Assembly: GCA_001793095.1 (NCBI GenBank)
Contig: MGHG01000011.1
Location: forward strand, 1-58,744
Length of the DNA: 58,744 nucleotides
Reading direction: 5' to 3'
Source: Candidatus Woesebacteria bacterium RIFCSPLOWO2_01_FULL_39_23
GTDB taxonomy: Bacteria > Patescibacteriota > Microgenomatia > UBA8517
A model generated the notes under the pieces. It saw only the letters and a list, made by a program, of their open reading frames with translations. It had not been told where the DNA came from and searched no databases. Within the stretch, counting starts at the first letter, position 1, and each line of letters starts with the position of its first letter. Both the position numbers and the translations under genes were made by a program. Positions 3,810-36,382 of the stretch are shown here, one piece after another.

Positions 3810-4532
3810 ATGTTGGAGAGAATATTTAACGCTCCTGAAGAACTAAAAGATTTGGCTTTTCAATCTCTTCTAGTACCGCGATATACACGCACCTATCATG
3901 AGGGAATCTTTCGAGATTCAACAGGCGGGCATACACTCCGGTGTATTGATAAAGCTGACACGCTTAATATAAAACAAGCAGATAAAGTAATTATTACAGA
4001 TAAACTCTGGTCGCATGACTTAGCTGAAGTAGTAACCTCTGATTTCTCGGCAATACATAAACAAAACGATCCAAAACTTAAAAGAATGTTATTCGAGAGA
4101 GAGCTGGAAGCCATCAGAACCTATATTCCTGAAAAATATAAGCCACACGTTTATGATTTCATAGAAGCGGAAAGATTCTGGGACGGTTCAATCTATTCCA
4201 AGTTACCTACGCCTCACGCGCTTGTGGCAAAAACTATTGATCATACTGATGGGAATGTTTTTTTTCACAAAGCACTTGCTTCTTGGGTTTCTTCAGATGA
4301 ATATAATCCTGATTATCTCCCAAGTAAAGATTCACTAAGATATACATTCGTCAACTATCATAAATACATGGAACGACTCAGCTCCCCCGTTAAACCATTC
4401 GGTCAGTTTTATGAAGTAATATTAAACTTATTAAACGATGAAATTGTTAAAATTGCTGGTTTCTGGTCTGGTGTTAAAGAACAAAAACAGCCTGAAATAA
4501 TAATCAAAGATCTCCGCACTATTATCAACTAG
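3810..4532 (+). CDS. HD-domain phosphohydrolase (5'-deoxynucleotidase YfbR-like)
   Basis: VPRY...GHT, WSHDLAEVVTSD, E...A, AKTIDHTD pattern. Confidence 0.65.
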   Translation: MLERIFNAPEELKDLAFQSLLVPRYTRTYHEGIFRDSTGGHTLRCIDKADTLNIKQADKVIITDKLWSHDLAEVVTSDFSAIHKQNDPKLKRMLFERELEAIRTYIPEKYKPHVYDFIEAERFWDGSIYSKLPTPHALVAKTIDHTDGNVFFHKALASWVSSDEYNPDYLPSKDSLRYTFVNYHKYMERLSSPVKPFGQFYEVILNLLNDEIVKIAGFWSGVKEQKQPEIIIKDLRTIIN

Positions 4533-4536
4533 TTTT

Positions 4537-5127
4537 TTAGTTTTCAAGACTTCTCCAAAGATACCACGATGCTATTGTTCTGTAGGGTTTCCAGCGCTTG
4601 GCGAATTTGACCATCCGTTCACTTGTAAGCTCTTTATTTAACAACTTCTTCATGCCCTTTTTTATCCCTAAATCATCATCGGGAAAAATATCAGCTCTTC
4701 CTAAACTAAACATAAGAAACATCTCCGCTGTCCATCGACCAATCCCTTTAACAGCAATCAGCTCTTGCATAACTTCGTCGTCGGGGAGATTGTTCAGTTT
4801 CCTTATATGTAGCTTCCTATCTCTCACTCTTTCTGCTAGATCTTTAATTGATCTTACCTTTGCCCAGGCCATTCCGCAGTCCCTCAGTGACTGATCACTT
4901 AGTGCCAATATCTTTCTGGGCGTTAGTCTTCCCCTCGCTTTACTCTTTAGTCTTTCAAAAATTACATCCGCTACTCTACCGGATAATTGCTGACCAATAA
5001 TCTCTCCTACTAATCCCTGAAAGTAATCAACGTGGACTCTTGGTTTTATTTTACAATGGCCGTACTTTTTAATTAAAGGAGCAATGTATTTATCTTTTAA
5101 GAGAAATTCTTCTGCATCTTTCCACAT
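4537..5127 (-). CDS. alkA: DNA-3-methyladenine glycosylase II (AlkA, HhH-GPD)
   Basis: IIGQQLS, VKGIGRWTAEMFLMF.LGR.DIFP.DDLG, WKPYRT.ASWYLW. Confidence 0.9.
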   Translation of the reverse strand: MWKDAEEFLLKDKYIAPLIKKYGHCKIKPRVHVDYFQGLVGEIIGQQLSGRVADVIFERLKSKARGRLTPRKILALSDQSLRDCGMAWAKVRSIKDLAERVRDRKLHIRKLNNLPDDEVMQELIAVKGIGRWTAEMFLMFSLGRADIFPDDDLGIKKGMKKLLNKELTSERMVKFAKRWKPYRTIASWYLWRSLEN

Positions 5128-5140
5128 GAGAAAATTATAT

Positions 5141-5210
5141 GGGAATTTAGAGGGGCTTATAGGATTTTAAAGGACTGTACTTTCTTCCTCTAAACTCCTC
5201 TAATTTCCTT
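5141..5210. repeat. Two oppositely oriented arrays of degenerate 10-nt tandem repeats
   Basis: gggaatttag aggggcttat aggattttaa agga (5141-5174) versus ttcctctaaa ctcctctaat ttccttt (5185-5211). Confidence 0.65.
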
Positions 5211-5941
5211 TATTCCAAATGCAGTTTACTTCGCATTCGGGCTTTTTCCACTTGATAATACTTTTGTTCCCTAGCAAGTTTTTCCTCAAGTGACTCCACC
5301 AATCTTCTTAAATGCCAGTCAGTCTTATTGATCAATTCAATGAAAATCTCGTAAGTCAAATCCTCGGCCTTCAAATTATCCACCGGCTTATAAAGGAATT
5401 GAAAGGAGTTTTTAGGAATTTGTCCTTGTGTTTTCTCTTTTCCTCTAGATTCCTCTATGTTCCTGTAAGTTCCTTTAATTACCACCGGTCTAGATATTAC
5501 TAACCGCTTAAGAGCTTCATGCCAGTCGGACAAATCAATTCCTAGGTTTTTAAGCGACGATCCTAGTATAGATCTTAAAAATCCATCTTGAAGCGATCTC
5601 TGAATATCACCCTTTCCTTCTATTAAACTTGCTTGTGCATAGCCTAAAAAAGTTAAATACTCAGACGTCGTCGGTCGTGCAAAACCTTCCTCAATATTGG
5701 CAACAACTGAGCGCGTATTATCGTCAAATTGTGCTTTTAATCTGTACTCAGATTTAGGCAATCCTGCAGTAAATTTTCTGGCAAATACCCGCAATAGACT
5801 TGCATTAGACCAAGCAACTAAGAAAATATAACCGTTTGGGGTATTTGAAACGCGAGACTTTTGGAGTGGTTTTTTCGGTTGGTTTAACTCTTGAAGAGTT
5901 TTATCTATAAGTTCCTGAACAACTGGGTTTATCTTTGACAT
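5210..5941 (-). CDS. Four helix bundle protein (TIGR02436 / 23S-IVP / bAvd-like) with C-terminal extension
   Basis: EYRLKAQFDDNTRSVVANIEEGFAR..SEYLTFLGYAQASLIE...DIQRSLQDGFL. Confidence 0.8.
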   Translation of the reverse strand: MSKINPVVQELIDKTLQELNQPKKPLQKSRVSNTPNGYIFLVAWSNASLLRVFARKFTAGLPKSEYRLKAQFDDNTRSVVANIEEGFARPTTSEYLTFLGYAQASLIEGKGDIQRSLQDGFLRSILGSSLKNLGIDLSDWHEALKRLVISRPVVIKGTYRNIEESRGKEKTQGQIPKNSFQFLYKPVDNLKAEDLTYEIFIELINKTDWHLRRLVESLEEKLAREQKYYQVEKARMRSKLHLE

Positions 5942-5943
5942 CT

Positions 5944-5975
5944 ATTAGGATTTTATAGGATATTAAAGGAATTTG
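5944..5975. repeat. 10-nt tandem repeat array upstream of the four-helix gene
   Basis: attaggattt tataggatat taaaggaatt tg. The same unit family occurs inside the gene at 5441-5480. Confidence 0.65.
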
Positions 5976-5984
5976 AAAATGATA

Positions 5985-6446
5985 TTATTCAATGGATGAA
6001 ATTATCCCTTTCCTCGACTTATTTTCTAACATCAGCTCAAATTCCTCACTGATTCTTTTTCCGATGATGGCTAATCCCAAGGGAGAACTGGATGAAACAA
6101 ACTTAAAACTGATAACTGAAGGTGATTCTTCAACATAAAAGAAACTGCTCGTTTCTCCGTCGTTAAATATTAGTTCCACATAACAAATCGGAGCAATACT
6201 TTCCGGTAAATCCCTTTCTAGGGACTGTTTTAGCATTTGTTGAAAATCTTGCATATTAATAAGACTACTTTTGGCCAAATCTGCCTGCGATTGCGAGTGA
6301 TACCTATCACCCGATTGCGAGGGGGAATTATATGAAGAACGTGCTATTTCATTCGCAGCTCCTACGACCTTTTCTGTCCTCACTTTAATTTCTTCCACCT
6401 CACGCTCGACTTTATTCAGCAACTCATTAAGTTTATTTCTTGTCAT
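5985..6446 (-). CDS. GreA/GreB-like elongation factor family protein
   Basis: N-terminal coiled coil with SQSGDRY; C-terminal VSSSSPLGLAIIGKRISEEF (Gre C-domain). ATG 6446 lies 6 nt after TATAAT. Confidence 0.7.
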   Translation of the reverse strand: MTRNKLNELLNKVEREVEEIKVRTEKVVGAANEIARSSYNSPSQSGDRYHSQSQADLAKSSLINMQDFQQMLKQSLERDLPESIAPICYVELIFNDGETSSFFYVEESPSVISFKFVSSSSPLGLAIIGKRISEEFELMLENKSRKGIISSIE

Positions 6447-6554
6447 GGGTAAATTATACAGAAAATGAAACAAATATTCGTAACCGAAGCATAAATTTAG
6501 AAATTAGTAATTAGAAATTAAACAACACTCTTTTACCTTCAATATCGAGCCATG

Positions 6555-7208
6555 TTATTTCCTATCAGCATCGAGTTTCACTGCAAGCATTCCTAGCGTT
6601 AGTCTAACAATTTCATCTACAGCCCACTGGTTCTGACTATATCTTAGGAGGGTTTTTTCCGAATTTAAGAATACTTCTAAAGGTTCCGTGATAAGGCGCT
6701 TAACTCTGCCTTCATCTGTACCCTTAGGTGGCGTCAAATATCCTCTTCCAAGTTCATCTCGATACTCTACTTTTGGTTCGGGGAAATCTGTGTAAAACTG
6801 GAGACCACCTCTTCCATCCTTGTGGCGTACCACAGATAATGGTTTCAAGTCTGGGAGAGTAATCATTCCACCAGTTTCTTCAATAAACTCTCTTTTTGCC
6901 GTATCAAATATCGTTTTATCTGTACCATACTTCATTTTTCCTGCAGGCAGTTCCACCCTCCTTCTACCTTTCTCAACTCCGAACTCAATCAGAAGTATGC
7001 TATTGCTATTTCTTGTCCGTGCGATTACGGCCGCTGAGGAAAGATCAACTTCCAAATACGGATCTGGGTCATCTAAAAACACATCAAGTTCGTTGTATGC
7101 CTTGAGATGAAAACCCTCTATTTCGTAAAATGCCTTAAGAAGAATTGTGTCTGTTACATCTCCCTCTGATACCAGAAACGGTCTTTTCCCTTCAAGAATC
7201 TCAACCAT
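6555..7208 (-). CDS. NUDIX hydrolase
   Basis: ELPAGK......TIFDTAKREFIEETGG, a Nudix box with a small insertion. Confidence 0.75.
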   Translation of the reverse strand: MVEILEGKRPFLVSEGDVTDTILLKAFYEIEGFHLKAYNELDVFLDDPDPYLEVDLSSAAVIARTRNSNSILLIEFGVEKGRRRVELPAGKMKYGTDKTIFDTAKREFIEETGGMITLPDLKPLSVVRHKDGRGGLQFYTDFPEPKVEYRDELGRGYLTPPKGTDEGRVKRLITEPLEVFLNSEKTLLRYSQNQWAVDEIVRLTLGMLAVKLDADRK

Positions 7209-35907: not shown

Positions 35908-35941
35908 GAGCATAAGAGTAAAAGAGTGGAAAAGTATAAGG
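35908..35941. repeat. 8-nt tandem repeat array at the 3' flank of the four-helix gene
   Basis: gcataaga gtaaaaga gtggaaaa gtataagg; inverted relative to 36345-36382. Confidence 0.6.
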
Positions 35942-35967
35942 AAATCCACTCCTACACAAATTACCTT

Positions 35968-36342
35968 TTACTTTTTATTCCTTAAACTTTTTTGGTAACT
36001 GAAAAGTAATTTTCTTACTTCTATCAAGAGGTTTGAAATTTCATTATAGTCGCCATTCTCCAGATATTTAAGATCGAACGCAATGTCTATTTGAACAGTT
36101 AATTCCAAGGCTGAGGCGATGCTTATATTAATGAACCGGACAAATTCTTTACGAGTCCGAAAATAACCTTCAACAATATTTGAGACAATTGAAATTGCGG
36201 CTCGGCGAGATTGTGGAATTAATACGAACTTTTCCTCAATTGGAAATAGCTTCGTTAGTTTATATGTTAATAAAACCAAATCTTTGGATTTTTGATAAAC
36301 ATATAATTTTTTATAAGATTGAATGTTGATTTTTTGCTCCAT
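35968..36342 (-). CDS. Four helix bundle protein (TIGR02436 / 23S-IVP / bAvd-like)
   Basis: SYKKL.VYQKS..L....YKLT..FP.EE.F.L..Q.RRAAISI.SNI.EG, F..FINISIASA.EL..Q..IA.DL.YL. Confidence 0.9.
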   Translation of the reverse strand: MEQKINIQSYKKLYVYQKSKDLVLLTYKLTKLFPIEEKFVLIPQSRRAAISIVSNIVEGYFRTRKEFVRFINISIASALELTVQIDIAFDLKYLENGDYNEISNLLIEVRKLLFSYQKSLRNKK

Positions 36343-36344
36343 AA

Positions 36345-36382
36345 TCTTATACTCTTACGCACTTAGGCTCTTACACTCTAAG
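36345..36382. repeat. 8-nt tandem repeat array at the 5' flank of the four-helix gene
   Basis: tcttatac tcttacgc acttaggc tcttacac tctaag. Confidence 0.65.

Follow-up and report, generated by a model that had tools for sequence, protein, structure and literature searches.

Introduction

Proteins of the S23p, or 23S rRNA intervening-sequence (IVS), family (PF05635, TIGR02436) are numerous and, to our knowledge, have no known function outside the Avd protein of diversity-generating retroelements (DGRs); their solved structures are some 20 years old (2GSC was released in 2006). Avd is a pentameric, positively charged nucleic-acid-binding barrel that acts on a specific RNA or DNA partner. Here we describe a gene for a long member of this family, a four-helix-bundle (4HB) protein, in a 58,744-nucleotide contig of Candidatus Woesebacteria bacterium RIFCSPLOWO2_01_FULL_39_23 (MGHG01000011.1; the whole contig is called the window). 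The gene carries, on both flanks and within its own reading frame, arrays of a 10-nt unit that recur at the same places in its relatives and change together with the gene between lineages of these ultra-small bacteria of groundwater. We tentatively read these arrays as putative cognate binding sites of the long 4HB protein itself, acting mainly at the DNA level and in autoregulation.

The 23S rRNA IVSs of Coxiella burnetii and Leptospira encode a protein of the same family (PMC4990558). The Coxiella IVS contains an S23p open reading frame (ORF); RNase III cuts the 28-bp stem at the ends of the IVS, and tandem GACAGAT heptamers, variable in copy number, lie just upstream of the S23p start (PMC4990558). 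The window locus likewise places an ORF between inverted repeats that may form a long stem, with short tandem repeats before the start codon. It differs in that the gene does not lie in rRNA, where IVSs occupy helix 25 or 45 of the 23S gene, and its neighbors are protein-coding (GreA-like, HhH-GPD), in a unit of 10 rather than 7 nt, and in having three inverted pairs of which one is translated within the ORF. Furthermore, the upstream pair overlaps the promoter and is probably not co-transcribed, the protein has double the length (243 aa), conservation of the unit extends across the class, and dispersed solo arrays exist.

A second comparison is with the REP/REPIN-RAYT systems (PMC3116915, PMC3337134), in which a single-copy, vertically inherited gene is also flanked by an inverted cognate short repeat, the repeat is dispersed in intergenic DNA, and repeat family and gene co-vary between lineages. 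Unlike RAYT, the window protein is a four-helix bundle with no HUH/Y1 catalytic domain, and the repeats are tandem 10-nt arrays rather than single palindromes, are found in 0-19 copies outside the locus and also lie in the ORF. Dispersed copies occur in the gene-bearing genomes G073/G111, G077 and G181 and are absent from G000 (G numbers denote genomes, G000 being the window's own; L numbers denote fetched loci and C numbers the contigs of a genome). With DGR Avd the protein shares a fold superfamily, but the repeats here are short periodic arrays and no match to the reverse-transcriptase family PF00078 was found anywhere in the genome, and a DGR accessory role was rejected on this ground. Oligomeric proteins that read phased short repeats include ParR, on parC, and the TRAP ring. 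By analogy, iteron and centromere arrays (ParR-parC) and the spaced GAG/UAG triplets of TRAP resemble the present arrays in having three to nine phased units near one DNA turn and sites on the regulator's own promoter; these proteins are not homologous to the window protein, for which binding is hypothetical.

Results

Five arrays of a 10-nt unit at the 4HB gene

Five arrays of the unit (AGGAATTTAG / CTAAATTCCT) lie within 835 bases around the 4HB gene (Table 1) and form three clusters of TTAGAGGA arrays. In the sense of the gene the order is a TCCT array, the ATG, the N-terminal part of the protein, an AGGA array, a loop, a TCCT array and helix 4, and then the stop codon fused to an AGGA array, a loop, a TCCT array and the next gene; inverted arrays of a short tandem unit thus flank the PF05635 gene on both sides. 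The original prediction, which drew attention to this region, had listed four arrays, all of which were recovered by Tandem Repeats Finder or repeat search, but the list was incomplete, as the internal array that is of AGGA type on the plus strand had been overlooked. The two internal arms are 72% complementary with 29 nt between them, and both are translated: the AGGA array is read in frame as the peptide KGTYRNIEESRG and the TCCT array as QIPKNSFQFLYKP. At the other end of the gene, the stop codon TAA (5210-5212) is part of the first TAAAGGA unit of the downstream array, and the same junction is present in L014, L015, L018, L025 and L044.

The clustering of arrays at the 4HB gene is far beyond chance. 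With at most one mismatch, GGANNTTANNGGANNTTANNGGA has six matches in the window, all between 5142 and 5970, where shuffled sequences lead one to expect 0.01, and these six are also the only matches in the whole genome of 1,126,128 bases. At up to two mismatches, 8 of the 12 genomic matches are at the 4HB locus, as are four of the five strict (AGGA N6)x3 arrays in the genome.

Table 1. Positions in the window of the 4HB gene, its arrays, the promoter elements and the adjoining genes.
Feature	Position	Strand	Type on plus strand	Basis
Long-type 4HB gene, 243 aa	5210-5941	minus		ORF and PF05635/TIGR02436 matches
Upstream array, three units, TCCT-type in gene sense, overlaps core promoter	5946-5975	minus	AGGA	Tandem Repeats Finder 5946-5974 (period 10); exact pattern match 5948-5970
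Predicted sigma-70-type promoter of 4HB gene	5950-5979	minus		promoter scan
Internal array, four units, AGGA-type in gene sense	5440-5483	minus	TCCT	Tandem Repeats Finder 5440-5478 (period 10); pattern matches 5441-5483
Internal array, TCCT-type in gene sense	5385-5422	minus	AGGA	repeat search; inverted partner of 5440-5483
Downstream array, AGGA-type in gene sense	5185-5213	minus	TCCT	Tandem Repeats Finder 5185-5209 (period 10); exact pattern match 5186-5208
Downstream array, TCCT-type in gene sense	5141-5174	minus	AGGA	repeat search (5141-5169); 79% complementary to 5185-5213 and 3' arm of their strong hairpin
TATAAT (5139-5134), 6 nt, ATG (5127) of HhH-GPD gene	5125-5139	minus		read from sequence
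GreA-like gene, neighbor of 4HB gene	5985-6473	minus		
HhH-GPD glycosylase gene, next gene after 4HB gene	4537-5127	minus		

Conservation of the layout and constraint on nucleotides

We fetched 37 loci from reference genomes of Woese-, Gottesman-, Roizman-, Davies-, Levy- and Shapirobacteria and a few Parcubacteria, of which 35 could be analyzed. At least one strict array is present at the gene in 26 of the 35, spread across Microgenomatia, and the three-site layout recurs down to ~44% protein identity. The conserved layout consists of three pairs of a purine array and a pyrimidine array, one at the promoter, one in frame in the linker between helices 3 and 4, and one running from the stop codon to the next promoter; the internal AGGA array lies at aa ~143-172 in 22 loci, and a TCCT array is found within 80 nt of the start in 14. 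Array density is 2.36 per kb in the gene and the 160 nt to either side of it compared with 0.042 per kb in the outer flanks, a 56-fold enrichment. The logo of 507 units reads A(.84) G G A [A/G/T] [T/A] T(.73) T(.88) A(.87) [A/G], and the arrays contain three (86 arrays), four (49), five (6), seven (2) or nine (1) units. No arrays were found in ~128 kb, including six extended regions, around the HhH-GPD genes of 29 relatives, none of which has a long-4HB gene at that locus; the arrays therefore go with the 4HB gene and not with its neighbor.

Codon use was compared between the array-encoded peptide of 17 homologues and the rest of the same coding sequences. In the arrays, 14 of 15 arginine codons are AGG (73 of 421 elsewhere, p = 8e-10), 13 of 16 leucine codons are TTA (144/603, p = 3e-6) and 17 of 20 glycine codons are GGA (104/250, p = 2e-4). 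Units in the flanks finish in TTAG or TTAA, whereas the coding copies show TTAC or TTAT (Tyr) at the stop-prone phase, an exchange indicating that both the array and the open reading frame are maintained. As judged from this codon use, the repeat inside the ORF is kept by selection on nucleotides and not on amino acids, the peptide KGxYRNLEESKG being a by-product, and it presents a clear case of a non-coding repeat held in an ORF by nucleotide selection. The number of units can also change within the frame, as in L024, where the coding sequence has an in-frame duplication in its TCCT array at aa ~176-195 (PIKSFKFLYPSFKFLYPPVD).

Co-occurrence of gene and arrays across genomes

We searched 401 genomes that sample the class evenly, calling the gene at E <= 1e-20. 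The gene is present in 18 genomes and arrays in 21, with both in 10 (Fisher p = 5e-10). An eleventh overlap genome is G140, in which the gene is truncated by a contig end beside its array, and counting it as gene-bearing gives p = 2e-11. Arrays away from the gene locus were found in 6 of the 18 gene-bearing genomes and in 10 of 382 others (p = 2e-5). In at least nine gene-bearing genomes the arrays are restricted to the gene locus, which means that no dispersed population is needed for them to persist there. Of the 60 nearest relatives of the window's genome, no more than 4 carry the gene and no more than 3 a strict array of any kind; of 26 genomes picked for carrying the gene, arrays were found in 20, for the most part at the gene locus.

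Within 1.5 kb of 38 secondary array sites, the only 4HB gene, long or short, is the truncated one in G140, which rules out secondary arrays as markers of further 4HB genes. Genes near solo arrays, recognized by eye from their N-termini, include those for aminoacyl-tRNA synthetases, a NUDIX hydrolase, a methionine aminopeptidase and an HU-like protein. In G077, two arrays lie in frame within unrelated proteins (L097:1500-1532 and L099:305-337) and encode the same peptide as the 4HB linker, KGVYRILEEFKG in L097, where it is carried by a 788-aa ORF, and KGIYRILKELKG in L099. Arrays are often located at contig ends (G140:C37:9720-9752 of 9764; G078:C2:181128 of 181223; G181:C21:9966-10011 of 10081), and many homologues of the gene are on contigs of ~1 kb. 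Since arrays seem to break assemblies, the copy numbers are probably underestimates.

Change of the unit between lineages

In divergent subfamilies the architecture is retained with a different unit. The linker of G161 and G181 (family f5) is coded by TACGGGA(A/G)AA units and reads PGKYGSLREKLREYTGK. Both genomes have the complement, TCCCGTA, within the N-terminal portion of the ORF, and in G161 the TACGGGA unit is also found upstream of the gene and directly 3' of the stop codon. Genome-wide, the pattern ACGGGA-N4-ACGGGA occurs 5 times in G161 (4 at the locus) and 22 times in G181, where 3 matches belong to the locus and the other 19 are dispersed; it is also present in two congeners of G181 and has no occurrence in the canonical-unit genomes G000 and G111. 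A third subfamily (G038, G240, G031) has a linker of two to three copies of TAAGGGT followed by three to four copies of ACCCTTA, with a period of ~12. Across these sequences the peptide is free to change, and the conserved feature is that a purine-rich array faces its complement, each lineage having a single unit for all its sites. Gene and repeat thus change together between lineages, suggesting that the repeat may be what the protein acts on.

In G052 and G139, TACGGGA arrays are part of a longer dispersed intergenic module (L152:1490-1560, L152:4084-4150, L153:3680-3750, L154:1547-1620). A conserved tail, TATGGTGTTTGTCTTTTTCAGCGCGCAATAAATTGCGCTAC, with a small GC hairpin follows the array in this module.

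The long 4HB protein

The protein matches PF05635 (23S_rRNA_IVP) over aa 41-125 only, with 43.2 bits (cut-off 33.8; 4.9e-11), and TIGR02436 with 36.6 bits (cut-off 24; 4.3e-9); no family other than PF05635 was found in the 243 aa. The AlphaFold2 model, a helical bundle with mean pLDDT 79.5, has an extra N-terminal helix, helices at 37-59, 63-87 and 92-119, a short helix at 137-149 and a long helix 4 at 197-241. Residues 155-179 fall below 50, and the array-encoded part coincides with this disordered stretch. The top PDB matches in Foldseek were two S23p-family structures, 2GSC (probability 1.00, 36% identity over 84 residues, rmsd 1.5) and 2RLD. These matches bear out the assignment to the four-helix/IVS family in the original prediction. 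2GSC, the S23p protein of Xanthomonas campestris, is a toroidal homopentamer (PMC4990558). The window protein does not have the compact form of four contiguous helices in ~110-125 aa, as the profile spans helices 1-3 only and helix 4 is set off by ~75 residues that include the array-encoded disordered loop.

Searches returned more than 500 homologues of 222-298 aa, all from Patescibacteria where the source is named, and the 10-nt unit is common to hundreds of them. Twenty-five of them were aligned (A1), and conservation is high in helices 1-3 and in the C-terminal helix (FIELINKTDWHLR...). The linker between the helices is of very variable length and holds the motifs KGxYRNLEESKG and PLNSFKFLY, which are the in-frame readings of the AGGA and TCCT arrays.

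Arrays and leaderless promoters

The predicted promoter of the window gene has a -35 element TTCAAA/TTTTCA (5979-5972) and a -10 element TAAAAT (5955-5950) located 8 nt before the ATG, with no Shine-Dalgarno motif. Among the 1121 called ORFs of G000, 10.5% have a Shine-Dalgarno-like motif at -18..-4 and a TAnnnT hexamer that ends 5-8 nt ahead of the start codon is found in 24.5%, which suggests that leaderless mRNAs are common in this organism. At 20 of 28 homologous 4HB loci, a TAnnnT hexamer, often TAGACT or TAAACT, ends 5-8 nt (usually exactly 6) before the start, well above the proportion for the ORFs of the genome (binomial p = 2e-7), and a Shine-Dalgarno motif is present in only 2 of the 28. 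Because of this hexamer near the start codon and the rarity of Shine-Dalgarno motifs, the 4HB mRNA is probably leaderless or nearly so, as far as the predicted promoter indicates.

The last upstream TCCT unit supplies the -35 element in L018, L024, L025, L027 and L031 (TTTAC(T/A)-N17-TAGACT-N6-ATG) and a -10 element of the TAAACT type in L023 and L029 (TCCTCTAAACT-N6-GTG). Since the upstream arrays lie on or just upstream of the predicted leaderless core promoter, they are probably outside the 4HB gene's own transcript. The downstream pair runs from the TAA-AGGA stop to the TATAAT-N6-ATG of the HhH-GPD gene in the window, L014 and L015, and the TCCTCTATAAT-N6-ATG arrangement at that gene is the same in L014 and L015 as in the window; the TATAAT before this ATG is a probable leaderless promoter that abuts the downstream array. 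These repeat arrays are tied to leaderless promoters in bacteria of the candidate phyla radiation, a group about whose gene regulation very little is known.

A strong promoter-like site on the plus strand of the window at 5935-5964 (TTGACA-N18-GATATT, 10/12) takes its -35 from the first 4HB codons and its -10 from the upstream array, and would fire antisense into the GreA-like gene. We also considered whether the internal TCCT arm could provide a leaderless start, in frame, from which a helix-4 peptide would be made, an arrangement that is possible in the window (TATAAG..GTG) and is not conserved in the homologues.

Synteny of the locus

The three closest homologues (L014-L016) are syntenic with the window, and their 4HB proteins have diverged to the same extent as the neighboring HhH-GPD proteins (78/77/69% versus 80/76/66% identity). 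Farther homologues lie in other genomic contexts. HhH-GPD orthologues were found in 33 of 61 genomes searched, that is, the window's genome and 60 relatives, and a search through these orthologues gave no empty site; the nearest gene-less relative, G022 (HhH-GPD 79% identity), is rearranged and has a different upstream neighborhood (hydrolase, GroEL). No target duplication was noticed at the locus, where no search aimed at one was made. In the window, a 240-aa gene lies between the M23 peptidase and HhH-GPD genes (3810-4532, plus strand), and in six relatives (L086-L091) these two genes are ~30-520 bp apart, leaving no room for it.

Discussion

In the reading that we tentatively favor, an oligomeric ring protein would bind three to five phased units (A-G-G-A-N-W-T-T-A-R), about one unit per subunit or DNA turn. 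Sites on or just upstream of the leaderless promoter would provide negative feedback. A second pair of sites ~470 bp downstream in the ORF would be tolerated because that stretch encodes the disordered loop between helices 3 and 4, and the third pair, from the stop codon to the next promoter, could permit bridging or looping between sites as well as control of the neighbor. Solo arrays by other genes may represent further targets or dispersed copies. The anatomy and conservation of the arrays, the constraint on their nucleotides, their co-occurrence with the gene and the joint change of the unit are observed, and from these we infer binding, a DNA rather than an RNA ligand, and repression. The original prediction had offered two roles for the arrays, ends of a mobile unit or substrates of the protein, and it is the second, as protein-binding substrate, that we favor and that appears compatible with all the findings. 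The subfamily offers a sharp, testable hypothesis, namely a defined 10-nt ligand at three fixed places in the protein's own gene, and the natural variants TACGGGA and TAAGGGT (TACGGGAAAA being the unit of the G161 lineage) permit specificity swaps.

A wider proposal, which we put forward as a doubtful one, is that long PF05635 proteins may be rings that read phased 10-nt repeats, with a specificity that evolves jointly with the unit (TAGAGGA, TACGGGA, TAAGGGT). They would form a self-contained protein-repeat system on leaderless promoters that keeps its own site in its own frame and seeds copies elsewhere. If true, this would be the first concrete biochemical function for the S23p/rRNA-IVS superfamily, and it would explain why S23p genes everywhere accompany inverted short-repeat arrays.

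Several observations weigh against the arrays being binding sites of the 4HB protein. Some genomes have arrays and no gene, namely G293 (7 matches), G166 (4 matches), G235 and G450, and G052 and G139, congeners of G181, carry arrays of the derived unit although no gene was found in them at a threshold as loose as E <= 1e-5. No more than three unit types were seen, each limited to one clade, and the co-variation of protein and unit is therefore confounded by phylogeny. A regulon was considered, but the genes downstream of solo arrays appear functionally unrelated, judged from their N-termini by eye only. We know of no recognized sequence-specific DNA-binding motif in S23p/Avd proteins. Finally, a three-unit TCCT array by itself resembles a promoter (TTTAAA-N16-TAAATT), and the arrays could thus act without a protein.

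The arrays could instead be a selfish dispersed repeat of the REP or MITE (miniature inverted-repeat transposable element) kind with no functional tie to the protein, the gene and its flanks being an old, tolerated landing place. Such a repeat would account for the solo arrays of many intergenic spacers, more than 1.5 kb away from any 4HB gene, for the in-frame arrays in other proteins (L097, L099), for the 19 dispersed matches of G181, partly in larger conserved modules, and for the many arrays at contig ends and the arrays of some gene-less genomes; the window's genome also has other repeat-rich intergenic regions and in-frame repeat insertions. We nevertheless consider it unlikely, as the three array positions are constant in nearly all members of the family, including the lineages with a changed unit, and the arrays at the locus are kept in genomes without other copies, G000 among them. 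Moreover, the copy in the ORF tracks the unit of the lineage, which would require either coupling or repeated re-insertion at one spot.

An IVS-like RNA cassette, in which complementary arrays pair into stems cut by RNase III that release or destroy the 4HB message and punctuate operon transcripts, seems to us quite improbable. The gene family is that of the IVS proteins, the Coxiella IVS combines a stem with tandem heptamers upstream of the S23p start (PMC4990558), and inverted short-period arrays enclose most 4HB genes of the genome. The 3' hairpin (5135-5216) folds very stably, at -23.8 kcal/mol in the sense and -27.3 kcal/mol in the antisense strand, with z ~ -4 on both; the internal hairpin (5380-5485) is weaker, at -21 and -24.7 kcal/mol. 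Solo arrays flanked by co-directional genes are oriented to transcription, 20 being TCC-sense versus 6 (p = 0.009), an orientation that fits a promoter-directional DNA role or an RNA role. However, a sense-strand G-U excess, sought in 36 array hairpins from all loci, was not found: 13 are more stable as the sense strand and 23 as the antisense strand, and there is hence no G-U signature of a sense-strand RNA structure. An Rfam search of 4400-6600 gave no rRNA match, the sole hit being a spurious sub-threshold mir-335. The predicted leaderless promoter leaves the upstream pair outside the transcript of the gene, cleavage by RNase III midway through the ORF would sever the message, and a stem alone fails to explain the strict 10-nt periodicity or the conserved GGA..TTA core.

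We give no greater weight to generic promoter and terminator punctuation, whereby phased A-tract arrays, as a curved UP-element with -35/-10 look-alikes, would serve the host polymerase as promoters, or in pairs as terminators, with no dedicated protein. At the 4HB gene and likewise at the gene that follows it, TCCT arms abut or supply the -35 and -10 elements of leaderless promoters, and the promoter-like spelling of three units emerges from the unit logo. Solo arrays lie a few nt after stops and 4-100 nt before starts, mostly TCC-sense, and AATTT tracts recur every 10 bp; phased A-tracts predict DNA curvature. Left unexplained are the conservation of arrays in an ORF under codon constraint, the invariant GGA core, and the absence of arrays from 380 of the 401 class genomes while they track the gene.

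Lastly, the patchy presence of the gene (18/401 class genomes, many families), its different contexts among more distant homologues and the mutual inversion of the flanking arrays might point to the ends of a transposase-free mobile cassette, that is, termini by which the gene moved, as the original prediction had also proposed, but this is highly unlikely and unsupported, as the gene is syntenic and has diverged like its neighbor in the closest relatives, complete pairs rather than one arm lie on each side and a further pair in the ORF, arrays sit on the promoter and occur solo, no empty site was found at HhH-GPD loci of relatives, and the genome has no reverse-transcriptase gene.

Other array-bracketed genes in the genome

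The genome has 13 PF05635 matches, almost all bracketed by inverted short-period tandem arrays with a 7-10 nt unit of their own. For 1119 ORFs we compared the 80 nt upstream with the reverse complement of the 80 nt downstream. The 4HB genes outscore the others for flank complementarity (Mann-Whitney p = 3.7e-5), with six of the nine called in the top 45. Together with the 56-fold enrichment around the long gene, this agrees with the expectation in the original prediction that arrays are commoner near four-helix genes than near others. The window 4HB gene ranks 34th, and yet each of its flanks has a complete hairpin of its own. High scores are also reached by two genes of RAYT-like type, by a GxxExxY gene and by ordinary genes located in repeat-rich spacers.

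Short PF05635 genes with arrays are located at 35908-36382 of the window (G000:C11) and at C5:17920-18288, C5:5049-5423, C12:63501-63860, C16:15475-15690 and C8:13489-13920. Their units include the 9-nt GGTAGAACA/TTGTTCTAC, the 8-nt GTAAGAGT/CTCTTAC and ACTCCAAA/TTTGGAGT; one of these genes lies between apparent dnaK and dnaJ genes, and three rank 2nd, 10th and 14th for flank complementarity. A second long paralogue, at C7:45077-45586, has an internal AGGA run and an upstream TCC run that are loosely array-like, and it was not used as evidence. The GxxExxY gene (G000 C4:6387-6779, minus strand; TIGR04256, 68.9 bits) has inverted short-period arrays of the ATAxxAATA and TATTAGTAT types. The two RAYT-like genes (G000 C8:7164-7853, plus strand, and C16:9661-10338, minus strand), for which the best NCBIfam hit is REP_Tyr_transpos, below the cut-off, are flanked by GC-rich hairpins of their own, of the TTGACAGGGTCTGACCCTGTCA and CACCTTAGAGGTG types.

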